Source: Lytechinus pictus
Lineage: Eukaryota
Assembly: GCF_037042905.1 (NCBI RefSeq)
Contig: NC_087250.1
Span: forward strand, 22,942,001-23,006,000
Direction of reading: 5' to 3'
DNA length: 64,000 bases
Shown here: positions 6,843 through 53,900 of the stretch, one piece after another
Numbering within the stretch: position 1 is the first letter of the stretch
Layout of the letters: the number at the start of each line of letters is the position of its first letter
The notes under the pieces: generated by a model
What the model was told of the DNA's origin: nothing
Databases searched by the model: none
Seen by the model: the letters and a program-made list of their open reading frames with translations, nothing else
Program-made: the position numbers and the translations under genes

Positions 6843-7232
6843 TAAAGTGATCAGAAACGCCTTGATGATTATGTTATTGCTATTGCTACAACACCTGTAT
6901 GTTCTCATTAAGATGCACAAATCCAGGTGACGGTTACTGTCATTGGATCAAAGAAATGCTCGCGTTAATCGTCCATCTCTTAGGTCCATGCATGATGAAA
7001 CCCAATGTACATTTGCTGAAGAAGATTTTTTTTTATTATTGAGTTTAGCTTTTGCATTAATGTTGACGTATATGAGAAGGTCCATGGGTAAGGTCTACAT
7101 AACTTTTTTTCCACCATATAGCTGATTTTAATCCCATTTATTTTTCAAGCTTCTTCCTGCTTCTTATCCATCTCACATTCCTTACAGGTTTCCTCTATCA
7201 TCCAGAGCTTAACAATCTTCAGACATTACATC

Positions 7233-8882
7233 ATGGCGGCAAGATTTCCTAAAGGAAACAAAGTTCAGCTCCGACCTCGAAAAGGTCATGACATGACATG
7301 GTCATGTGATGAGCATGGTGAACCAATCAAATTTTACTGCTTAGAACACGAATTGCCAGTTTGTCATCCATGCGCGACCAAAGATCACCAGAAACCATGC
7401 AAGCTGGAAAACATCCAGGATATCATCTTTCAGAGGAGGGAGAATTTGTACGACAAAAAACCAAAGATAGAAGAAACGAAGAAACAACTGAAAACTCTGG
7501 TCTCTAAAATAGAAACTGTTGCAACGTCTGCAAGTAGGAGCATCGATGCAGTCAAGGACCAAGTGAAGATGACATTCGAAGACAAGTTAAAGAGTGTTAG
7601 GGATAAGAAAGTGAGAAAGCATCGGGTGATTCATGAGTGGGCAGATGAGAGAATTAGAAAGATTTCTGAGGAAATGGACAAAAAGATCAAGGATTGCAAC
7701 ACTGAGATAGAAAAGGAAGAACAAAACATCAAAGACAAAGAAGCTAAATTGTTAAAAGATACAACGACAATCAGTGAGGTAGTTACTAAGAAGACAAACA
7801 ATCTCTCTTGTAAAAATCAGCATGCAATAAATACTTTGATGAACATTGAATCAACCATCAAACGTATAAACCAACATGATGAAACATTGGTGAATGAAGC
7901 TCCTCAAATACTTGCATCTATTGATGAAAATCTAAGTTTGAATGTTCATCAAAATGTGAGCGACTGTCTTGACCGAATAGAGAATGAAGTTGAGAGAGTG
8001 AAGTTTGTAGAGGGGGAAGTAGGTGAAAAATGCTATGGTAGAATTGATGGGTGTTTAGGTAAATGGGAACTTGTCAAGTCAATCCACATTACATCGGTTG
8101 TTCATAAACCGTTGGTGCGTGGTTTGATCAGTGAGGATGAGATCTGTGTGCAAGATGTACCTAACTATAACATGTACCTTACAAACATCAACACTCAACA
8201 CACAGAGAAAGTCATTGATGGAGGTGAGCTGATTACATTATGTGCGCTCATAGACAGTAACGTAATAGTATGTGGTAAGGTGAGACGTGGTTGCACGGGT
8301 TACAGGTTGAATGGATGCATCACTCTCTATGATAGACAATGGAAGGTGATTAGAGACATCAGCATACCAAGGAATGGATACGATAGTCATGTGTATGTTG
8401 ATGTTGACAGGGATGGGATGATCATTGCTGGTCAGTACTATCAGTCTAATATCTACATCATCAATCCTGCTGATGATAAGATAGTAAACACTATTAAGAT
8501 GCAGGTTAAGAAGGTGATGGGTGGGATACAAGCCTTGTCATCGGGTGATATCGTTGTGAGGACAGGTTATCATGAATACACTGTCATCTCACGATCAGGA
8601 GAAGAGAAGGCTGTCATACACTGTGATGAGTGGTGCGAATCACAGTGTCGCGTTGACAAACTGACAGACACACTCTACATCATGTACTGGGATAGAGCGC
8701 GTAATACCTACGCAGTTGATCAGGTGTCACGTGATGGTATCATCCAGGCAAGGAGGATTGTGGAATATGTGGAATCAGATCGCACTCACTTCATCAGCCC
8801 TTGTCTTGTTACTCCTTCTGGCAACCTCGTAGGATGTGATGGAGAGAAACTTCATCTTTACAAGAAGACATTCGTCTTGTAA
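7233..8882 (+). CDS. TRIM-like B-box/coiled-coil/NHL beta-propeller protein, copy 2 (549 aa, single coding exon, no RING)
   Basis: Intact ORF; B-box2 CDEH-x7-CLEH-x4-CHPC-x4-H; coiled coil; propeller; ATG in acatcATGGCG context, 45 nt after acceptor cttacag (7187). Confidence 0.9.
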   Translation: MAARFPKGNKVQLRPRKGHDMTWSCDEHGEPIKFYCLEHELPVCHPCATKDHQKPCKLENIQDIIFQRRENLYDKKPKIEETKKQLKTLVSKIETVATSASRSIDAVKDQVKMTFEDKLKSVRDKKVRKHRVIHEWADERIRKISEEMDKKIKDCNTEIEKEEQNIKDKEAKLLKDTTTISEVVTKKTNNLSCKNQHAINTLMNIESTIKRINQHDETLVNEAPQILASIDENLSLNVHQNVSDCLDRIENEVERVKFVEGEVGEKCYGRIDGCLGKWELVKSIHITSVVHKPLVRGLISEDEICVQDVPNYNMYLTNINTQHTEKVIDGGELITLCALIDSNVIVCGKVRRGCTGYRLNGCITLYDRQWKVIRDISIPRNGYDSHVYVDVDRDGMIIAGQYYQSNIYIINPADDKIVNTIKMQVKKVMGGIQALSSGDIVVRTGYHEYTVISRSGEEKAVIHCDEWCESQCRVDKLTDTLYIMYWDRARNTYAVDQVSRDGIIQARRIVEYVESDRTHFISPCLVTPSGNLVGCDGEKLHLYKKTFVL

Positions 8883-15097: not shown

Positions 15098-15953
15098 TAT
15101 ACTGAAACCATAGACCTATGAAGAGATGGACATTCATCGATATTATGAATTCACCAACAAGTGACTGTTATTGTCATCTGAATAACATTCTCTTCATATT
15201 AGTCTACTTTGGTTCTATGATCGTCATCATGAGAAGAACCAGAAGCAATTCATGATTTGACATTTATATTCAACAGATTGTATGTGCAGTAGATAATAAA
15301 TCCCTTAAATCATTGGAAACTGATGTGCAGTTCTTGTTTACCTTTGGTAATCTTTGTTCCATTTGTTTATTTGGGGAAAAGTCAGAATATTTTTATATTG
15401 AGGCAATTTTGTGATTAATTTGTTTACCATTTGAATTTGAAATTCCATTTTCCCAAGTTTCTCCATAACATTCCAGATATATATGGCACAACAAGGCATA
15501 AATTGTGTATCTTTCAAGGTTATTGAGGTCCTTATGTGTAAGCCAAAGTGAGCAGATCGAATGATATCATATATGCAGGGTGCAACATAAGCGCTTGCCC
15601 GATTGCCAGGGGCAAGTAAAAGTTAGAGTCAGGCAAGTGATTTGAAGCAAAGACAAAAACTAATTGCCCGAATCGGGCAAGCAAAATTCTCATATAGAAA
15701 TTATATTTTAGAAAGATTCCCCATATTTCACCATCAGAAATATGGAGAAAAAAAAAAGAGACAAATAAAAGCCATATCATTAATTTCTTCTTTCAAAAAG
15801 TTTATAAGTCATGATTCTAATTGCAAAATTTGTGCCATTTTCTGCAATAAACACACAACTCAGACACGTACACACACACACAGAATCAATGGCAGTCTAG
15901 CATACCTAGCTAGCTAGCGCCTCGTCATGCACGTAGCCCATGCATGTAGTTAA

Positions 15954-16533
15954 AGGGATGGTCCAGGCTGAAAATATTTATATCTTAATACATAGAGTAG
16001 AATTCACTAAGCAAAATGCCGAAAATTTCATCAAAATCGGATAACAAATAATAAAGTTATTGAAGTTTAAAGTTTAGCAATATTTCGTGAAAGCAGTCGT
16101 CATGAATATTCATTATGTGGGTTGATGATGTCACATCTCCACTTTCCGTTTTCTTATGTTATTACATAAAATCCTTATTTTTTCATTATTTCATACTTGT
16201 GTGATAATATGTCTCTCTAATAATGAAATAAGTTGTGGCAATAAATATCTAAAGCACTATTCAGTTGTCAATCCAATTTTTCTAGTTCTTGGAGGAAAAA
16301 ATTTGAATAAATCTAATTTCATATAATAAAATACAAAAGAACAAGTGGAGATGTGACATCATCAGTCCACCTAATGAATATTCATTACGACTGTTTTCAC
16401 AAAATATTGCTAAACTTTGAAATTCAATAACTTTGTTATTTGTTATCCGATTTTGATGAAATTTTCGGCGTTTTGCTCAGTGAATTCTACTCTATTTATT
16501 AAGCAATATATACTTTCAGCCCAGACCATTCCT
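15954..16533. mobile_element. Kolobok-like MITE nested in the previous element
   Basis: ttaa|agggatggtccaggctgaaa ... tttcagcccagaccattcct|ttaa; largely palindromic. Confidence 0.85.
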
Positions 16534-16879
16534 TTAAGTTTCTACGGAGTACGGTGCTGCACGAACAAAGTTTGCTATGGAAGAAATCTCCCAAAGAACT
16601 GTCAAAATTCACATTTCTTGCAGATGAAAACTCTTGTAATGTCTATATTTCCTAAAAATTGGGGTAGCTCTGTCATTTGTAAGCAGTAAAAGGAGAAATT
16701 TTCACTTCTGTTATGCTTCAAAAAGATCAGGTTTTGAATGATCGTCTGTATCACACACACTGAAATAGATTGTTTGACAGTCCCACATTTGTGTTAATGT
16801 TGATAAACGTGGTTTCTTTCGTAACTATTTTTTTGCCAAGGAAATTGATAAATTTTTTTCTTTACTTATGACTGGATAG

Positions 16880-18770: not shown

Positions 18771-19158
18771 TTAAGTGATCAGAAACGCCTTTGTGATTAT
18801 GTTATTGCTATTGTCACAACACCTCATTAAGATGCACATAACCAGGTGACAGTGACTATCATTGGATCAAAGAAATACTCGCATTAATCGTCCATATCTT
18901 AGGTCCATGCATGATGAAACCCAATGTACATTTGCTGAAGAAGATTTTTTTTTTATTATTGAGTTTAGCTTTTGCATTAATGTTGACATATGTGAGAAGG
19001 TCCATGGGTAAGGTCTACATAACTTTTTTTTCACCATATACATGTAGCTGATTTTAATCCCATTTATTTTTCAAGCTTCTTCCTGCTTCTTATCCATCTC
19101 AAATTCCTTACAGGTTTCCTCTATCATCCAGAGCTTAACAATCTTCAGATATCACATT

Positions 19159-20814
19159 ATGGCGGCAAGATTTCCTGAAGGAAACCAAGTTCAGCTCCGA
19201 CCACGAAAAGGTCATGACATGACATGGTCATGTGACAAGCATGGTGAGCCAATCGCATTTTACTGTAAGAAACACGGACTACCCGTATGTGATCGTTGCG
19301 CTATCAAAGAACATTGCCAAAAACCATGTGAGCTAGATGATATCGAGGATGTCATCTTTGAGAGGAGAAAAAAACTAGATGAGAAACGGCCAAAAATACA
19401 GGAACTTCAGAAACAAATGAAAGCCCTAGATTTGAAAATAAAGACAGCTTTAACTTTTGGAGATACTTATCTACAGACCATAAACAACAACATTCAAGCA
19501 TCGTATCACAACAAGATCAAATCTGTTGAGGAAAAGGAGGACAGAATGATTAGGGTGATTAACGAGGAGGCAGATGAGGAAATAAGACTGGTAAATGAGA
19601 AGAGAGAAAAACGGATCAAGGATTGCAACATTGAGAAAGAAAAGGAGCAAAAACTCATCAAAGATAAAGAAACAAAACTTCTATCAGATGCAAAAACAAT
19701 CAGCGAAATTGTTTCTAAGAAGATCAAAGATCTAACTATTAAGAGTCAGCATGTCATAAACACTATTAAGAATATTGAATCCACCATCAAACGTATAAAC
19801 CAACATGATGAAACATTGGTGAATGAAGCTTCTCAAGTACTTGCATCTATTAATGAAAATTTAAGTTTGAATGTTCATCAAGATGTTAGTGACTGCCTTG
19901 ACCTAATAGAGAGTGAAGTTGAGAGAGTGAAGTTTGTAGAGGGGGAAGTATGTGGAGAATACTATGGTAAAATTGATGGGTATATCGGTAAATGGGAACT
20001 TGCAAAGTCAATCCACATTCCATCGGTCGTTGATGAGCCTTGTGTGTTTGGTTTAGTCAGTGAGGATGAGATATGTGTGCAAGACGTAATTAACAATAAC
20101 ATGTATGTTACAAACATCAGCACTCAACACACAGAGAAAGTCATTGATGGTGTGTGGATTACATCATGTGCGCCCATAGACAGTAACAGAATAGTATGTG
20201 GTAAGAGGAGAGTTGATTGGTGGGGTGTCAGGTTGGATGGATTCATCACTCTCTATGACAGACAATGGAAGGTGATTAGAGACATCAGCATACCAAGGAA
20301 TGGAAACGGTATGATTGTGTATGTTGATGTTGACAGGGATGGGATGATCCTCGCTGCTCAGTACTATCAGTCTAATATCTACGTCATCAATCCTGCTGAT
20401 GATAAGATAGTAAACACTATTAAGATGCAGGGTAAGAAGGTGTGGGGTGAGATACAAGCCTTGTCAACAGGTGATATCATTGTGACGACAGGTCGTAATA
20501 AATACACTGTCATCTCACGATCGGGAGAAGAGAAGGCTGTCATACACTGTGGTGAGTGGGACTCACCACAGTGTCGCGTTGACAAACTGACAGACACACT
20601 CTACATCGCGTATTGGGATAGAGATCGTAATACCTACGCAGTTGATCAGGTGTCACGTGATGGTATCATCCAGGCAAGGAGGATCGTGGAATATGTGGAA
20701 TCAGATCGCACTCGCTTCATTAGCCCTTGTCTTGTTACTCCTTCTGGTAACCTTGTACATGTAGTATGTGATGGAGACAAATTTCTTCTTTACAAGAAGA
20801 CAATCCTCTTGTAA
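19159..20814 (+). CDS. TRIM-like B-box/coiled-coil/NHL beta-propeller protein, copy 3 (551 aa)
   Basis: Intact ORF, same architecture; B-box2 CDKH..CKKH..CDRC..H; same upstream acceptor at 19113. Confidence 0.9.
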   Translation: MAARFPEGNQVQLRPRKGHDMTWSCDKHGEPIAFYCKKHGLPVCDRCAIKEHCQKPCELDDIEDVIFERRKKLDEKRPKIQELQKQMKALDLKIKTALTFGDTYLQTINNNIQASYHNKIKSVEEKEDRMIRVINEEADEEIRLVNEKREKRIKDCNIEKEKEQKLIKDKETKLLSDAKTISEIVSKKIKDLTIKSQHVINTIKNIESTIKRINQHDETLVNEASQVLASINENLSLNVHQDVSDCLDLIESEVERVKFVEGEVCGEYYGKIDGYIGKWELAKSIHIPSVVDEPCVFGLVSEDEICVQDVINNNMYVTNISTQHTEKVIDGVWITSCAPIDSNRIVCGKRRVDWWGVRLDGFITLYDRQWKVIRDISIPRNGNGMIVYVDVDRDGMILAAQYYQSNIYVINPADDKIVNTIKMQGKKVWGEIQALSTGDIIVTTGRNKYTVISRSGEEKAVIHCGEWDSPQCRVDKLTDTLYIAYWDRDRNTYAVDQVSRDGIIQARRIVEYVESDRTRFISPCLVTPSGNLVHVVCDGDKFLLYKKTILL

Positions 20815-23887: not shown

Positions 23888-23937
23888 CTGAAAACACAAA
23901 GAGAAAAAAATCAACGGCCGTCCTGAAATACAATTAA

Positions 23938-24479
23938 AGGTAACCAAAACACAAGAAGCAATCTTATTGGAAAGAGTAAAATGAGACGAACAATTTTTTA
24001 AAAAAAATTCATCAAAATCGGTTATGAAATAAGCAAGTTATGGATGTTTGAAAAGTCTGATTGTACTTTCTATGGGGATCCTCAAATCGGCAAACGTGCT
24101 TCAAAATGGCTGATTTTGTGGACAACTCTACATTTGTTTTGTACACAAATTTTCAGATTTTCCTCATTATCTTTCAAATTGCATCTTGCCTCCTTCAGAG
24201 CACAACATATGTCATGGTCAGGAGGAGATAATGTGAAATATGTAAAATAAAGGAGAAAATCTGAAAATGTGTGTACAAAACAAATGGAGAGTTGTCCACA
24301 GAATCAGCAATTTTGAAGCACGTTTGCCAATTTGAGGATCCCCATAGAAAGAACAAGACTTTTTAAACATCCATAACTTGCTTATTTCATAACTGATTTT
24401 GATGACTTAAAAAAAAAATTGTTCCTCTCATTTTACTCTTTCCAATGAGATTGCTTCTCTTCTTGGGTTTTGGTTTCCT
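23938..24479. mobile_element. Palindromic Kolobok-like MITE
   Basis: ttaa|aggtaaccaaaac ... ttttggtttcct|ttaa; arms inverted over most of their length. Confidence 0.85.
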
Positions 24480-24514
24480 TTAACTAAATATTTAATACAA
24501 ATAATTGCCACTGT

Positions 24515-30294: not shown

Positions 30295-30480
30295 TCATGG
30301 GCCCGGCAGCCGCTGTGCAGCGCCAGATCGACGAGGCTCTATCCCTTTAATCGTTAAACGCCAAACATGGTAGCAACAACTCCCATCTCTTAACGTCTTT
30401 TGGTCTGATGCGGCCAGGGTTTGAACCCCGACCTCCCAGTTGTGAGACAGACGCTCTACCAACTGAGCCAACACACCGGT
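30295..30480 (-). mobile_element. tRNA-derived SINE, second family (Meta-domain-like)
   Basis: Minus strand tggctcagttggtagagcg (A box), ggttcaaaccc (B box), then cagaccaaaagacgttaagagatggg. Confidence 0.7.
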
Positions 30481-32021: not shown

Positions 32022-32823
32022 GGCTGCGTTTATGCGACCTCAAGCCAGAATCATGATTTGAATCATGATTCAAAACACAAACATGAATCACAATATCACA
32101 GAATCAGCGTTTAGACGACCTTCATTCCAATGCTGTTTCTCCTCAGATTCGGGCCAATCCAGTGCGCATCACTAGTGCGCAGTTTGACAGAGGAAGTTTT
32201 TCGCACGTGTTTCGGCTCTCGAAAATTCTTTTGCTTCCATCAGAATTCAGTCTATACCTCATTTTGTTTACTTCTATCATAAAGGGTCCATATGCTTCTA
32301 TTCATCTTGTTAGTTTATCCAAAATGGTGTTCGGAAGTGAATTTCAGCGTAGATCCAATACTGTATACTCAACAACAACTGAGATCATTGTCTGTCCAGT
32401 TAATTCATTTACTAGAACTTGAAGTTGAAGACATGACCAAAAAATGAAAAGTAGTGGACGATGCGATGACCAACACAGAACTTGAACATGACAAGAAATG
32501 AATTCATAGTACATAGTCATGTACATACAATGAGCATATAGAGCGCCTTGAGCTTGGCAAGAGTCAAACCGAAAGTAGCCCGACACAACAGTGAGGTCAT
32601 ATAATCATGATTGTAATCACGATATCGTTTATTCGAACATTTTCGTACGTGATTCTGCAGAAACGTCTTTCCAAACGCCCCTTTTTTCGTGTTTCATGTT
32701 TGTGATTCTAATCATGATTATATTCAATTTCGACTAAACGCAATCGTGATTCTGCAGAATCATGATTTGAATCATGATTCAAATCATGATTCTAGGGTAA
32801 AAAAGTGGCGGATAAACGCACCC
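32022..32823. mobile_element. Harbinger-like MITE inserted in a duplicated fragment of exon 7
   Basis: TIR gg(c/g)tgcgtttat, ATA TSD, aatcatgatt subterminal palindromes. Confidence 0.85.
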
Positions 32824-33375
32824 ATAGATCGCTGAACCTGCTATCTGCAACATAAAGGATGACCACATCATCGATTTAGGGTGGTGTTTCATGAAAGCTG
32901 GAGAGCGCTTTATAGCAAAGCTGAATGGAGCACTATAACAATAATACAAAGCATGAGACATGCATCGAAACTTTAAACTAAACTCGAAACGAATCAAAAA
33001 GTCCCAGTTGACCCCAGCAACAGGCTGATCCGAATGAATAGAGAAAAGAGAAACATCCATTCTATCCATTCAAATCATCCTGCAGGTGGAGCAGACTTGG
33101 GCTAAAAGAAAAGGAATAAAAATAGGCAAAAAATAAATAAATAAATAAAATAAAATAAAAAATAATAATAATAATAGGCAGTTATATAGCGCCATCTATC
33201 TAGAAATAATCTACTGTACAAGCTGTTATTTTTACGTACAGAATTTTTCGCGAATCGAGGGGGTCCCGTTTGCGGGTTGTTAAATTCGCGATCAGAAGAT
33301 GTTCAAAACACTTCCACAGCATTTCAACAATGCAAAACTAGTGCAAATCATGTGCAAATCTATGCTCCTCAGAGT

Positions 33376-33551
33376 GTGTGTGTGTGTGTATTTGAGTTTT
33401 GTCAGACGTGTATCAATCAGATTTGATTATTTACGTCTGGGACCGACCTTTAACGTCACCATCCGAAAGACGTGACCAGGGCTCGAACCTCTGCATCAAT
33501 TTGTAACTTCCCCGCATAGCTTGGATTACAGGCGCACGCCACAACGCCCAG
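33376..33551 (-). mobile_element. Short SINE with 7SL/Alu-like head, B box, Deu-domain-like segment and (CA)n tail
   Basis: Minus strand CTGGGCGTTGTGGCGTGCGCCTGTAATCCAAGCTATGCGGG...GGTTCGAGCCC...GTCTTTCGGATGGTGACGTTAAAGGTCGGTCCC...(CA)n. Confidence 0.7.
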
Positions 33552-34720
33552 AGTCCCCATGCTGATGTCTATTATACATAAATATGTCCCTGTAAAAACA
33601 GTTACAATATGTGGAAAAAGGGGGCTTAATTTTCACTTTTTTTACCTTTAGATCTGAAAATTCATCATGTCACAGTTTGATCTGTAATCCATAGGGTAAA
33701 GCAATCTTTGGAATTTGTGTTTTGTCAGATTCATTTTTCAAAAAGTTGGTAAAAGTGCAAAAATGTTGAATTTTGTGCAGAATCTTACACCTCGCAACGC
33801 TCTGGTCATGTGACTTATGAATATTAATGAGTATGCAAATAGCTGCCAATACGTGTGTACAAAATCAATCAGATGACAATAAAATCAAATTATTTCATGG
33901 AAAATACATTTTGATATTACAGTGAGTGAAAAAACATTGATAAACTTATGTTAGAAAATAGTTTAGGCTCTAATTTTTTTTGAGAAATAAACTTTTGAAT
34001 TACTAACTGTACTTTCTAAGCCTTATTTTTTGTACATATAGAGGTGCATACTTCAACTTTCTCACTACACAGGAAGTTTCCAATCGCAAATCTTTGCTGT
34101 CGGGGACATTGGCACTGGCTAAGTGACCGTATTTTTATTATTGGTGTTCTCCTTCATTCGCCTGCAGGATCGTGCATCGGAACGGCGGACGATTTTTACC
34201 CGAAGTCCTTGGCAGAGTCGAAAAGTAGGAGCCAAAATCGGCGGAACGGCGTAAAACTAATTATGTCCGCTTTGTTCCGCCGATCTGCTCTGCATGCACT
34301 GCACTGAGCAGATATCAGCGAGAGGCCAGGCCTGCTGCACTAGCGCTGCAGTAGCGATGGATTCGACGCTAGCTAGCTCGTAGTACTGCACTTTTAAATA
34401 TAGCCGCTCCCCAATCCATAGCAATTCCAAGGCGATCACAATCGCTTGGCTCGAATAATGCATGAATTATGTATGTCTTATGTTTTATGAATCCTTAATA
34501 TATACCAATCATAAAGCAATTATAATAAAACTTGCCTACCATTCCCTGACTTTGTTCATAGCTCAGGCCAAGGCAAGATGCAATCGCTCCTCTATCAATT
34601 TCGGACTCGGACTCCACTCTAAATCTGGTTGGAATTTGGCAACCAGTAAAAAAAAACAAAAAAAAACAAAAAAATTGCCACAGATTTGGCGAGCTTTTGG
34701 GGGGGATCTTTCCCTTTATG

Positions 34721-39570: not shown

Positions 39571-40212
39571 TTAATGATGATGAGTGACAGTGTAATGCGC
39601 TTTTCTGCATTTACCGTTAACAGCATTCCTGAGTTGTTGTTTTTTTTCGTCGCCAGAGAAGTCACCTGGGAATTGCATGTCCGCTTGAGCGGCTATCGCC
39701 CGGATAATATAATCACGCCTAAGGGCTTTCTTGGACCCATCACCATTGAAGCTGTAGGTGGCCAACTCCTCCTTTGTGTAAAACTCCGAGAGGAGTTTGA
39801 CCACCAGCTCTCTCCCATTCTTACACCGCTCAAACACCTGCATATATTTCGCCTTGGTCATGTAAGCATTGGCGTCATGACTGCCTATGCTGATACTGTC
39901 GTCATCCAATTTGCAGTGGTAAACGGGGTCTGGTTTCTGGTTTCTAGGGACGTGAGTGGTAGTACATGTAGTTGCCTTATTTAATTCTTCCAATTTATTG
40001 ATGATTTTTGTTTGATTTGTTAAAATTAACTTGTTCTGTGTGTGAATGCTATCGAGCTTCTGCATGATGACAGATTGGGATTGGGAGGCGGAGAGGGAGC
40101 TAGACTGTGAGTTTACATAATGGGATTCTGAAGCGTCATGTGCTGCGAATGAAGACTCGTCCAGCATGTTTAGCAAAGCATCATAGTCTAATCCTTCGTC
40201 AGTTGCCTTGAG
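39571..40212 (-). CDS. Terminal exon of a coiled-coil + BEN-domain protein
   Basis: ttttacag acceptor, 214 open codons incl. stop; LVVKLLSEFYTKEELATYSFNG...IIRAI...LRNAVNGKCR fits the BEN pattern (LL..FF..EEL...S..G ... N.KC); upstream exons not resolved. Confidence 0.72.
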   Translation of the reverse strand, partial: LKATDEGLDYDALLNMLDESSFAAHDASESHYVNSQSSSLSASQSQSVIMQKLDSIHTQNKLILTNQTKIINKLEELNKATTCTTTHVPRNQKPDPVYHCKLDDDSISIGSHDANAYMTKAKYMQVFERCKNGRELVVKLLSEFYTKEELATYSFNGDGSKKALRRDYIIRAIAAQADMQFPGDFSGDEKKQQLRNAVNGKCRKAHYTVTHHH

Positions 40213-40897
40213 CTGTAAAACAGTAAGATGAATTAATTGAGAAATGTATTACATTTATATCTTCGCTATATGCTATGTATCATTAATTAAGGTCGAAACA
40301 GCCGTTTCATTCATTTTTATTCTAATTTATACGAGTCATATACCTATTATGTAGCTTGTGCAAAATAAGTAAAAACAGCTGTTTTCGACTTGCCCTATAC
40401 TGCCGCCGTTGAGCAAATGTGACCGATGTCTTAAGACTTCAGTAAAACAATATTATTATTTTTATATGTTTTTGAGGGTGTCACGTTTTAGTGGTTACGA
40501 CTCTCGCCGTTCCAGCTATGGCGTGCTTTCTTATGAAAGAAATTTACCCAAATTGTGCTACACTCGACCCAGGTATTAAAGGTGAATGGCTACCTGTCAT
40601 CATGATTACTCTCTTGAATTCGGATACCACCGGGTAATAATTCCGTTTTATAAATTTTTTTTGCCAACTTCTCTTCACTCAAAGTATTTATCTCTATCTT
40701 TTATCTCACTCCTCGGGGGCCACGAAAACGGAGGAGGGGGGGTGGTTGTTAGGGTTTTTCAGCTTTTTCCTAAAACCATGTAAAAAACCATCTTGTGACC
40801 ATCTGATTGTGATTTTATTTTGCATGGCCACCTCCCCCCACCTTCCAAACATTTCCGCGGCCCCTGCTCCTTTTTGGGTTATATATATCTCTCCCAT

Positions 40898-41485: not shown

Positions 41486-42620
41486 CTCTCCCACTTTCCT
41501 TTTCTCACTTTCTCATCCTCCCTTGCTCATTTCCATCTAATATGCTTTTATTTTTTATTTGTATCCGATTAACTTAAAAAGTAAAAGAATGTTCTTGCGT
41601 GCAATTATCAAATCGGGGGGGGGGGGGGGGATCTTTGAACTCAAAGACAAATTGTTAGCACCATATACAGATTATACAGCGTATGAGTTTGTGAAATGAA
41701 TTCTTAACCAAAATTATCACTTACATAGAAAAGGATGTGTGGGCAGGGCATTATAATTGCTCTTAGAAAATGAAAGACTTATTCTGTGCTTTAATAAGCA
41801 TACTACACACAAAATGTAAAATAAATTCTACATCATGGCCAAGGGAAGTAGGGGGGCTGAGGTGCTCGTGCTGCGTGTATTTAATAGGCAGCACCCATAT
41901 TCGGAAAGATGGGTAAAAATTGGAGAAGATGTAACCAAAATTACCTTCATAATGTTGTTAACCGCCACTTTTTTTTGCTTTTCAAATTTCTCTGGACCAA
42001 AGTGACCACCATTTTGTAGTGATTTTTTTCTTTTCCGCTTTTCAAATTTATATATCAGCATCCCCAGTAAAAAATCTTTCCCAGGACCCTGTTCTATAAT
42101 TATGTACCTGCAGATTGTAGACAGCAAATTGTTTCTACCTAACTAGGATATATGATTTTGCTGCCCTTTATGGAAAAAGCAAAAAATAATTGATGATAAA
42201 AAGTGAAATGACTGGGTGCATGTGGTTGCAAAATTAATGTGACACATACCACCATGCACAAAATGTGTGTTTCCTCATAAACTCATCCTTCTTTATGAGG
42301 AAGTGGTTGGAAGTGTATAAATTATTCAAAATTGTAAAATTAGATTTTTGTAAAATAATTTGAAACTATTACAATATTTTGCCCAATATCAGCATATGAT
42401 AAGGCTGTGAGGTATATTTCGTCATGTGTTTAAGATCCACTTTTGTGTTCAATTAACATTGGGAATATTCGCAATGATAAATTTTCACAGCAAATCACTT
42501 GTCAACTCGCGGCATCAAAAGTCACCAAAGGCTACAGTGCCCCTGTGTATTCTTGTTTAAAAATTCGAAAGGTACATGAAATAATTTGCATTTTCATTTC
42601 GTTTTCACTCCATCCTTTAA

Positions 42621-43205
42621 AGGAGAATGAAACCCTTGAAACCAGCTGAATCCATATCAAAGAGAAAAATCAAAGAAACATATTGTTGAAAGTTTGAGGA
42701 AGATTGAATGAATAATAAGAAAGTTATGAGCATTTGAATATTGAGATCACTAATGCCATGTAGATCCTCCTATTGGCAATGCGACCAAGATCTGTGATGT
42801 CACACACGTACAACTCCCTCATTACTTTAGTACTTATTTCACTTATATTCTCACTTTTATAGAGTCTATCACAATGTGAGGTGTTCTCTTTATGAGAGGA
42901 CAAGTACAGAGGTTTCACAACATTACTATCATTGATGAATCGTTTGTCATATGATTAGAATGAGCAAAAAGCGATGTTTTGGGGTATATTTTCAGTGTCC
43001 AAAAGGGGAGAGTTGTTCATCTGTGATATCATAGATCTTGGTCGCATTGCCAATGGGAGGATCTCCATAGCATTAGTGATCTCGACATTCAAATGCTCAT
43101 AACTCTTCTATTGCTAGTCCTAATTTACTCAAACTTTTGTTGATCTTATTCTTTGATTTTTCTGCTTTCACAAAAGCTAACTTGCTCCAAGAGTTTCATT
43201 CTCCT
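42621..43205. mobile_element. Kolobok-like MITE
   Basis: ttaa|aggagaatgaaac ... gtttcattctcct|ttaa. Confidence 0.85.
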
Positions 43206-45460
43206 TTAATACCTTTATGAGCTAACGGACACAGACATCAAATATCAAATAATGTACTCATTGCGGCAACACGGTTCGAAATCCGACTATTTCATTGGTC
43301 AGTTTTGTGGGCGTTGTCGAGGGCTCGTCTCTGTCCTTCTCGTGTCATTCATCTCTCGTTCTTGTTTGGCACTCCGAGTGCTCGGTACGTACGTGTATTA
43401 GACTCTGGATGGGGTGTAGATCTAGCTTGATTCATTTCTCTTTTAAACAATGTATTTTGGCTGTCTTTATAATCCCCCAACATCTCTGTTCCCTTTTGGA
43501 AATATTGCACGAAATTCTCGCACATTTACATGCATGTTAACAAGACGATACTCTTTCACATGGACAAATCAAAACTTTTCTGCGCTGCCGTACCCCGGTG
43601 CCGTACTCTAATTGCATCGCTTCCACTGAACAGTTAAGAAACAAGAAAATGAAATCCAGAGTTCAATTTTTGTCAAATATTTTACTCGCGTGGTAATAGA
43701 AAAAATATCAAGCTGAAACTTGATTTTCATTTAAATTCACTTCATTATTAAAAGGATATATGACTTTTGGTGTCACTAATTATATATTTCTATCTGAAAA
43801 CTGTATTAAGAGTGGATATTTAATCCAATTTCATTAATGTAAACTATGCACAAGGTCACAATGTTGGGGATTATTTTCGAATCGGCCCTACGGCCCCAAT
43901 AGGAGAAATGTGACTGCAGTCATGTATGTAGAATGTCAAACTCTGCAGTTTTTAATTTTGTGCGAAAAAGGGACTCTACTCTGAACGGTGCCATATCAAC
44001 AGGTTTTCGTAAGACTTTCGGGCGATCAGATCCGAACGCCAGCGAAGCTATCTTCCAAAATGGCTTTCTGAACAAGTTTTGACTGCACCTAGTCTTAGTA
44101 CTGTAATGAGAACGAGGTGCATGTTTACAGAATATGAAATCTAGTATAAACAGGCGCGTATCTTGTACATATGCCCAAGTCTGGCCAAGTAAAATCTTGA
44201 GTTCTCGTCGCGTTTCTCTCTCGATAAGCCGCGTTGCGAAGCGTCGGTGCCAATACTTTTTTCTTGGGTATTTATACCCACAGAGCATGCGTAGCGCGAT
44301 TCCAGGAGGGAGGGAGTGTGAGTTAATGAACTTTTGAGAAAAGAAAGGGGCATTCTTCCAGACAGGTCTATCAAATGCCGATAGCAGGGGCGGATCCAGC
44401 CTTCACCATTTGCATGAATTCGGTCTATGTATAATATGACGTTACCACATTATGAAATGTGACAAAGCTTTTACTGATTAGTCTTCTAATAATTATATTT
44501 GTGATTGAGATTAATATAAATACAAAAAAAATCTAGGAACTGCTTTAATGATATTTATTTGTAATAAATAAATTGACTTATTTTCTTATTTTTACATTCA
44601 GTCGTTCAAGTGGTGCAAAAGTTCCTTGACTTTTCAAAATATTTGCTATTCCATTAGGAGAAAAAATGAAGTGATGATGCCATGACATCATCGATACTGA
44701 GGGAACGAGAAACGTGTTTTTATTTTTATTTTTTTCACTTAGCCCGGGATTTAGCCTAAACTGAATTGAGTGTAGACAAAGTTCATCTCCATGGTAACCC
44801 CATTTACTACATATCAGTGCACACATGTCTCCTAGAATGTTTAATGTTATGCGACTTGATTCAGAGCTAGAGCTAGATAGAGAGACGACAGAGCTTTTCA
44901 TGGTACTAAACTACTAACATGCTGCACATATTTTGTAAAGGGGTCTTTTGAGTACTAGTATTCAACTTTTATAGATCTTGGCCTAATATTACTATTACAA
45001 CACTTCTTCATTTCCACAACCACATACATGGAAGACTTTGATATTAGTTTAAGGATTTTCTTCATTTACGAATTTGACGAACAAAGTGTTTCATGCAGGT
45101 TTTATGCTAGCAACAAGTGATCACATTGTCGGTCTAACGTTAGCTGTAGCTGTTACTGACTTAGTCTAGATCTAAGCCTAGACCACATCTTCCTGAAATA
45201 CTGGGTTTGGGCCTAGGGGTGGGAGTGAGCTAGTCTTGTCTACCATGGCCATGGATTCGTATTGGAGTTCATTGCAGACACTAGACAGTCCGTCACAAAA
45301 TGGAATTTGAAATTGGAAAGAACAGGTAGATTTGGACCTTAGGCTCTCGTACATATGTCTAACATGGCCATGGATTCGTATTGGAGTTCAATGCAGACAC
45401 TAGACAGTCCGTCACAAAATGGAATTTGAAATTGGAAAGAACAGGTAGATTTGGACCTTA

Positions 45461-52354: not shown

Positions 52355-52919
52355 ACACTTCGTAATTCCGAAGGTTCTTTATTCCGAAGGTTCGTAATTC
52401 CGAAACACGTAAATTGCCTATACCTCAATGTTCGTTAATACGAAATCGAAAAAGGGTTCGTTAATCCGAACATTTGTGGCGTTATTCCGAAGGTTCGTAA
52501 CTCCGAAGGTTCGATAATCCGAAAACGAAATAAGGTTCGATGTTCCAAAGGTTCGTTAATCCGAAAACAAATAAGGTTCGTTGTTCCGAACGTTCGTTAA
52601 TCCGAAAACAAAATAAGGTTCGTTGTTCTGAAGGTTCGTTAGTCCGAAAACGAAATAAGGTTCGTTAATCATTTCGTTTTCGGACTAACAAACCTTCGGA
52701 ATTACGAACCTCATTTTGTTTTCGGATTAATGAACCTTCGGAATTACGAACCTCATTTCATTTTCGGACTAAAGAACCTTCGGAATTACGAACCTTATTT
52801 CGTTTTCGGATTAACGAACCTCCGGAATTACGAACCTTCGGAATTACGAACCTTCGGAAAAACGAACCTTCGGAATAACCGAACCTTCGGAATAACGAAG
52901 CTTCGGAATTACGAATGTA
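52355..52919. mobile_element. Palindromic MITE built from ~15-bp repeats, nested in another MITE (52303-53031)
   Basis: taattccgaaggttcg arrays invert to cgaaccttcggaatta; outer TIR tgcagaaagagttgcg. Confidence 0.75.
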
Positions 52920-53654
52920 TGCGAAAATATCAAGCGCTAGTCCCGAATACAGGTGCTTCATTGGCTGAAAATCAAGTTGCACAAGATTTGTTTAGTTGCG
53001 TTTGATCGCAACTCTTTCTGCAACGGGCCCCTGCACTGTGAAAGATGCTGAGCACATTTTAGTGGGATTCAAAGGCCCTCTTTTACAGCACCTAAATTTC
53101 TCAGCTTTGATAAAAGATCAGACCTGCCAACCTTCTACAACCAAAATAAGTATTCTTATAAGGAAAAAAAAACAATTTTTTTGACAAAAAAGAGAGTATT
53201 TTTAAAAATTTGTCTCAATGTAACAATCGCCAGCCAGTTTTGGTGAGAACATGTGATAATTCACCCTTTTAAAAATGTGCTTGTAGGCAAGAATTTACTT
53301 GTTCTTTTCATGCAACAAGTTACTGGCCCGACAATGATTTTTACCAGACTGGGACTGTCGGACCGGCGCTAGTGTCACGTGCTGTGTATATTACATACTC
53401 CAAGATCAGATTTTTTTTTTTAAAGTAACAAGTATTGGGGTATTTATAGCAAAAAAGAGGAACAAATACTCTAAAAAGGGGACGGTTGGCATGTGTGAAA
53501 GATGCAGCTCTGACTACAGTGAAGGTGCCACAACAAAGAGTGTCTTTTTGCTTTAATTGCACTCAGCGCGTTTTCTCTGGTTATTCCTCAGTTTCGTTAC
53601 AAGGCACTATGGCTACAGGAACGGTGCTGTGGAAAATGTGCAGCGTCTCTATAC

Positions 53655-53900
53655 GTGTGGTCCGGTGGTTAGAGCATTGGACTCATAATCGCAAGGTTGT
53701 GAGTTCGAATCCCCACTCTGCCATTGTCTCCACTTTAATAAAAGGGCCCGAGAGTAATATCTGTCGTCTAGAAGGTCAGCCACTGTGACTGATTAACCTA
53801 GACGTAAAATATTTCGTAGGTAATTGGTTATATACCAAGTTGGCATTTACCAGCAAAATGCTGTCCTGCCGAGTTCCTACGGGAGTTACCATAAAACAGA
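53655..53900 (+). mobile_element. SINE with tRNA-like head
   Basis: tggtccggtggttagagc, ctcataa loop, gttcgaatccc followed by a non-tRNA body. Confidence 0.55.

Follow-up and report, generated by a model that had tools for sequence, protein, structure and literature searches.

A sea-urchin SINE with a probable 7SL RNA 5′-domain head on the body and tail of a tRNA-type SINE

A 64-kb stretch of DNA from the sea urchin Lytechinus pictus, which we call the window, contains one copy of a SINE whose head fits 7SL (SRP) RNA. The copy lies on the minus strand at 33552-33374 and is about 179 nt long. It is modular: the 7SL-like head stands in front of a body and a tail that also occur under other heads. 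We consider it likely that this is a sea-urchin SINE in which the 5′ Alu domain of 7SL RNA (about nucleotides 1-46) was set on the 3′ part of an older tRNA-type SINE, and that it works by the mechanism proposed below. An earlier note on this DNA had described a 7SL head, a B box, a Deu-like segment, a (CA)n tail and a short flanking repeat in an invertebrate. All these parts are found where it had placed them, on the minus strand, and the host is indeed an invertebrate (Table 1).

Table 1. Parts of the element and its flanks, in window coordinates
Feature	Position	Strand	Basis
7SL (SRP RNA) Alu 5′-domain-like head: model positions 1-46, helix 3, UGU turn, helix 4, complementary loops, A-box region	33504..33552	-	RF00017 alignment, fold, layout test
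Linker from the SRP-like part to the B box	33490..33505	-	alignment to sibling L003
tRNA-type B box	33479..33489	-	in register with B-box-like motifs of siblings L001-L003
Deu/Nin conserved SINE domain, 5′ start only, about 38 nt	33439..33476	-	by-eye comparison with published consensus sequences
3′ tail hairpin, 13 base pairs, candidate partner-LINE recognition signal	33403..33439	-	fold
A-rich end and (AC)8 microsatellite tail	33374..33402, (AC)8 at 33374-33389	-	
6-nt direct repeat, possible target-site duplication	downstream 33370..33375, upstream 33549-33554	-	
First TTTT after the head start, candidate Pol III stop for this copy	33334..33337	-	216 nt from head start

The 7SL likeness of the head was proposed in the earlier note, and the Rfam model Metazoa_SRP (RF00017) recovers it for the 5′ domain. 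In a scan of 2 kb the model aligns to 33552-33495 with 25.1 bits and an E-value of 4.7e-4, the best E-value of the 24 Rfam matches in that scan. When only 33440-33600 (161 nt) is scanned, the E-value is 2e-5, and none of the three matches listed there up to E 10 is a tRNA. Across the whole window the E-value is 0.015, and an unrelated snoRNA model reaches 0.016. At this scale the Rfam hit alone is borderline. It gains weight because it falls exactly at the head position of an independently defined element. The score is far below the gathering score of RF00017 (70 bits); with only 47 nt set against a model of 299 positions, no more is to be expected.

In the 2-kb alignment 36 of 46 consensus positions are identical, with three inserted letters, and model positions 16-35 agree with the SRP consensus at 19 of 20 sites (both counted by hand). 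The SRP-like part comprises the first 47-49 nt of the element, aligned to model positions 1-46. Extending the alignment to model position 111 adds less than 1 bit, and the SRP 3′ segment is absent from it. A 7SL gene or a plain 7SL pseudogene is ruled out, since the match stops near model position 46. Human Alu contamination is ruled out as well: the stretch lies inside sea-urchin DNA, and the body is common to non-human loci.

A head that fits a tRNA better than 7SL was the outcome that the earlier note had set against its own reading. To compare the two donors we used seven tRNA-SINE heads from the same window as controls, namely five heads of one family, a Meta-type head at 30477 and a head at 53649. 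The first 15 positions do not separate the two donors: the SRP consensus and three CORE-type tRNA-SINE heads from the window are each matched at 11 of 15. Positions 16-36 match each of the seven local heads at 3-7 of 21 sites. When the 48-nt head is aligned to the seven heads, no alignment beats those of shuffled sequences (p 0.12-0.65). The likeness to tRNA is confined to the B-box region (p 0.002-0.04 against five of the seven heads), and the head cannot be aligned to a tRNA over its length, as a SINE2 head would be. ARAGORN finds no tRNA at the head. A covariance model of the seven heads gives 16 matches across the window at E-values of 10 or less and none at the element; the model is weak on distant heads, finding that of one sibling locus (L002, below) and missing those of the other two (L001 and L003). 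Rfam itself scores two of the seven control heads as tRNA in the whole-window scan. Tested against the Rfam metazoan model, the head has an SRP match and no tRNA match, which supports an origin from the SRP RNA 5′ domain and not from a tRNA.

The controls lie in a window that holds other repeats and genes. The tRNA-headed family is about 270 nt long, with five full heads (24516+, 28518+, 38107-, 48422+ and 50606-), a degraded one (40475+) and two tail types; its central part looks like a CORE domain. The Meta-type SINE runs from 30477 to about 30230 on the minus strand, and its head resembles the published head of SINE2-1_SP. The head of another type lies at 53649-53719 on the plus strand, and a partial B-box match at 54479-54399 on the minus strand. 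Overall the window is AT-rich animal DNA. It contains single-exon B-box (TRIM-like) genes at 7122-8882 and 19048-20814 on the plus strand, with related sequence at 1-1945. They form a tandem duplication with units of about 7-12 kb and belong to a large sea-urchin-specific family: for the B-box protein of 548 residues encoded at 7236-8879 there are 116 relatives, of which those with a name are from sea urchins and the best is 92% identical (Lytechinus pictus). A cluster of palindromic repeats with 12-nt units lies at 32600-32800, includes a perfect 38-nt palindrome (32756-32793) and is partly repeated at 32046-32077. Long inverted repeats at 15950-16537, 23934-24483, 52362-52913 and 42617-43209 are probably MITEs or fold-back elements, and they explain why miRNA models reach high scores, though still under threshold, in the whole-window Rfam scan. 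An open frame at 39571-40248 on the minus strand (225 residues, no Pfam match) is possibly a transposon-borne DNA-binding gene. Looked up by exact sequence, two proteins of the window gave no hit.

The fold of the head agrees with the SRP model. In its minimum-energy fold the 48-nt head forms helix 3 with six pairs and helix 4 with three pairs, as the SRP model does, and both hairpins are kept; the earlier note had described this for the first. The folding energy is no better than that of shuffled sequences (z -0.06). The layout was examined with reference-free rules that ask for helix 3, UGU-A, helix 4 and loop-loop complementarity; the loop positions follow the human structure. Helices 3 and 4, the UGU turn and loop-loop pairing are the features described for this domain, and human Alu has three interloop pairs (PMC8137916, PMC4238359). 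The head has the helices, the UGU turn and two complementary loop positions, and in these respects shows the structure of an Alu 5′ domain. Among 128,000 positions on both strands of the window one site passes the layout test, the head itself, where 0.4 are expected in Markov sequence of equal size. When the head region is shuffled, 1 in 20,000 versions passes. We set up the rules with the element already in view, so these figures overstate the rarity somewhat. One chance site also passes in sibling locus L003, outside its SINE.

The body and the tail have a different history from the head. One 21-nt body pattern matched three loci in a metagenome collection, and all three serve here as siblings (L001-L003). 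Each of them shares body and tail with the element, with 100/111, 83/94 and 77/90 identical bases (86-90% over 90-111 nt). The tail, which lies outside the search pattern, is identical at 35/45, 40/45 and 42/45 positions. Over the stretch that begins with the B box and reaches the Deu start, the siblings match at 11, 13 and 11 of 18 positions without gaps. Alignment columns 62-92 are identical in all three siblings (31/31), 21 of these columns being the search pattern. Upstream of the B box the identity to the element drops to about chance. The 7SL-like head is found in none of the three. Rfam gives no SRP or tRNA match in the sibling loci, only four matches at chance level. The head of L002 matches the profile of the local tRNA-SINEs (E 3.9e-5, and 0.019 in a second search), while those of L001 and L003 have A- and B-box-like motifs and are tRNA-like by eye only. 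In L002 a MITE, presumably Harbinger-like, is inserted in the tRNA-like head of the SINE at about 84-443; its inverted ends are short, and a TTA repeat flanks it at either end.

The siblings also bear on where the head ends. The linker matches the head region of L003 at 9 of 10 bases, and 7 of 2000 shuffles do as well; the other two loci show no linker match, which leaves one positive of three. If the match to L003 holds, it would place the junction of head and body at about 33505, where the SRP-like part stops. The B box seems to have been inherited from the tRNA-type parent. Because the siblings share the B-box register, the Deu/Nin start and the tail under heads that are not SRP-like, the comparison supports a chimera of a 7SL 5′ domain and the 3′ part of a tRNA-type SINE. 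The earlier note had read the element as such a chimera, and the SRP fit of the head and the occurrence of body and tail under other heads both agree with it.

The Deu-like segment is only part of the domain. To the eye, the motif at 33476-33439 looks like the 5′ beginning of the Deu/Nin domain of BivaMD-SINE1, of hagfish Deu-SINEs and of Lsa_Nin_1 (25/32 for the last, by eye). Only these first 40 or so nucleotides stand; the remainder of the domain is absent or unrecognisable in the element. For comparison, the Deu domain is given as 330 bp and the Nin domain as 70-120 bp (PMC4824008). The fold of the 91-nt body has a z of -1.5. In the tail hairpin 50 of 52 cells are paired across the four sequences and the loop varies; no pair changes on both sides in these four sequences, and the data are compatible with a structure without proving it. 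At 317-326 of L003 a 9-nt duplication sits in the loop of this hairpin, with both stems intact. The (CA)n tail of the earlier note corresponds to the (AC)8 at the end of the element. A CA repeat closes L002 and a CAAC repeat closes L003, and the last 20 or so bases of the element resemble, by eye, the end of BivaMeta-SINE1, a CA repeat. The element itself contains no TTTT. The flanking repeat is present as two 6-nt copies. It is not a proven target-site duplication, because it overlaps both ends of the element (four bases where the SRP alignment starts and the final AC unit) and chance alone would produce about such a 6-mer repeat in the flanks searched.

Neither blastn nor nhmmer finds a further copy of the element in the window, which leaves one copy in 64 kb. 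Viral contigs (three patterns) and prokaryote genomes (two patterns) gave no match to the element, and such scans say little about an animal element. Of the 24 sequencing runs listed for 33000-34000, 20 hold part of this stretch and none holds half of its words; no RNA run containing it is among those listed, and these runs are no evidence on copy number or expression.

How should such an element be classified? SINEBase defines a SINE as short (<1 kb), built of head, body and simple-repeat tail, with at least 100 interspersed copies per genome and at least 60% identity to tRNA, 5S or 7SL RNA over at least 60 nt (PMC3531059). At about 179 nt, with a head, a body and a simple-repeat tail, the element has the length and the build of a SINE. 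Its identity to 7SL is higher than asked for (78%, 36/46) but extends over 47-49 nt only; head and tRNA-type T arm together exceed 60 nt, but come from two donors. A 5′ part from 7SL RNA is what defines SINE1 (PMC7245038), and the element has such a part when judged against the Rfam metazoan model. It lacks the plan of Alu, B1, Urop and Ebu1-1, in which 7SL 5′ and 3′ parts are joined by a central deletion and the B box is that of 7SL. It also lacks the poly(A) tail that goes with L1 mobilisation in Alu, B1 and Urop and has a hairpin and (AC)8 instead. The label "Alu-like" given in the earlier note goes too far: a 7SL 3′ segment, a dimer and poly(A) are all absent. The element is probably a 7SL-derived SINE of a new build and the first in an invertebrate. 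No 7SL-derived SINE from an echinoderm or any other invertebrate turned up in the literature covered by our search, outside of which lay most subscription papers and Repbase Reports. An "Alu" element has reportedly been described in amphioxus.

In published accounts 7SL-derived SINEs occur only among supraprimates, hagfish and shrew moles, and those that they describe all have joined 5′ and 3′ segments of 7SL (PMC7245038, PMC10886601, PMC13023118). The most recent of them, from 2026, calls independent lineages "extremely rare" and finds nearly the same central deletion in all (PMC13023118). Alu, B1 and Tu of Euarchontoglires and Urop of a shrew mole share with our element the 7SL Alu 5′-domain head, including helices 3 and 4 as well as the UGU turn; in them a central deletion of about 183 nt joins the 7SL 5′ and 3′ parts, and they use L1 and poly(A) (PMC13023118). 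The sea-urchin element, in contrast, is a monomer with (AC)n at its end and lacks a 7SL 3′ part. A likeness in construction is found in the hagfish SINE1-1_EBu (Ebu1-1) of Eptatretus burgeri, where a 7SL head also precedes a body and tail taken from an older SINE with a tRNA head, the tail is a microsatellite without poly(A), and the origin is independent of Alu (PMC7245038). SINE1-1_EBu keeps the 5′ 96 nt of 7SL with its own B box as well as the 7SL 3′ end, and its body is derived from RTE (PMC7245038), whereas the sea-urchin element has only about nucleotides 1-46, a tRNA-type B box, a body with a Deu/Nin start and a hairpin tail.

Two further systems resemble the element in single respects. 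The engineered minimal Alu domain SA46/AY46 has the same 7SL extent, about nucleotides 1-46 (PMC12199147). SA46 is a laboratory construct with an outside promoter, whereas the B box of the sea-urchin element would come from its tRNA-type partner. In 5S rRNA/tRNA hybrid Deu-SINEs of the AmnSINE1 type a second Pol III RNA likewise replaced part of a tRNA head (PMC4758252); here the donor is 7SL and not 5S rRNA, and only the first 38 or so nucleotides of Deu/Nin are present. From the same host group Repbase holds SINE2-1_SP to SINE2-8_SP, of which SINE2-3_SP is a Deu-SINE (PMC3747384, PMC4824008, PMC4758252), and the sea-urchin SINE2 families are listed as tRNA-headed (PMC3747384, PMC4824008, PMC4758252, PMC5804259). 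Comparison of the sequences of SINE2-1_SP and SINE2-2_SP shows plain tRNA heads, unlike that of the element. For SINE2-3_SP to SINE2-8_SP the comparison covers the listed head type, and the family of our element may already be deposited in Repbase as tRNA-derived.

From this build we infer how the element would arise, be transcribed, bind SRP9/14, find its partner and be active at present. A template switch or a recombination would have replaced the 5′ half of a tRNA head with 7SL 1-46. A precedent is the replacement by 5S rRNA in some Deu-SINEs (PMC4758252). Pol III would then use a hybrid promoter, in which an A box within the 7SL part (positions 6-15 of human 7SL; PMC7245038) is combined with the B box retained 58 nt downstream. 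The B box of the tRNA parent would supply what the 46-nt 7SL fragment lacks. The 46-nt 5′ domain binds SRP9/14 and is enough for Alu mobility, while according to the same authors the bare piece cannot spread in evolution, having no B box (PMC12199147). We lean slightly towards a role for SRP9/14: bound to the 5′ domain, it would bring the RNA to ribosomes that are producing the LINE reverse transcriptase. The enzyme of the partner LINE would recognise the 3′ hairpin and the CA tail, and insertion would follow by target-primed reverse transcription.

One alternative concerns the role of SRP9/14. The family could be real and of the same origin while its 7SL piece serves only as the A-box half of the promoter, and spread depends on the 3′ hairpin, as in the tRNA-headed relatives. 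The same body and tail do exist without a 7SL head in L001-L003, the 7SL 3′ segment that SRP9 also contacts is missing (PMC4238359), there is no poly(A), and the mobility of the 46-nt domain was seen with L1 in human cells. An A box, however, needs only about positions 6-15 (PMC7245038), whereas the match reaches about 46. It ends where the SRP9/14-binding 5′ domain ends (nucleotides 2-47; PMC4238359), and helices, UGU turn and loop complementarity are all kept. We regard a promoter-only role as unlikely, though it is the likeliest of the alternatives.

A further alternative keeps the donors and drops the family: a single reverse-transcriptase switch from a tRNA-type SINE RNA to 7SL RNA would have left a one-off chimeric retrocopy. 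The single copy in 64 kb, the head missing from all three siblings and, with little weight for an animal element, the empty viral and prokaryote collections would fit such an event. Yet a switch to full 7SL RNA would usually carry the copy past the 5′ domain. Nor is the single copy an argument for a one-off, because a family of one to two thousand copies would place well under one copy in 64 kb of a genome as large as that of a sea urchin. We think a one-off event improbable. Least plausible, with only a slim chance of being right, is a decayed tRNA-derived head whose A-box region came to resemble the start of 7SL by chance or convergence. Positions 1-15 fit local tRNA-SINE heads as well as SRP, a similar start is seen in Lsa_3, a tRNA-SINE head described from a mollusc, the E-value at window scale is modest, and a tRNA-type B box comes after the head. 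But positions 16-35 fit SRP almost perfectly and tRNA heads at chance level, Rfam, ARAGORN and the local model find no tRNA where Rfam does score two other heads of the window, and the Alu-domain layout is all but lost on shuffling.

We return to the chimera of a 7SL 5′ domain and a tRNA-type SINE. The chances seem about even that the copy represents a young, many-copy sea-urchin SINE family, which would take 7SL-derived SINEs beyond the vertebrates for the first time and be their fourth independent origin, with exactly the 46-nt SRP9/14-binding domain and a tRNA B box as the fix for its promoter. As the first case from an invertebrate, such a family would also break the central-deletion rule of construction. 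It would be a natural counterpart to the minimal 46-nt Alu domain of cell assays (PMC12199147). If the reading is true, docking on ribosomes through SRP9/14 helps even a SINE with a sequence-specific partner other than L1 and no poly(A), and 7SL heads shorter than 60 nt may hide, for other invertebrates too, among the "tRNA" SINEs of the repeat libraries. With tRNA-headed relatives that carry the same body and tail, the advantage of an SRP9/14-binding head would be directly addressable in a tractable embryo model.
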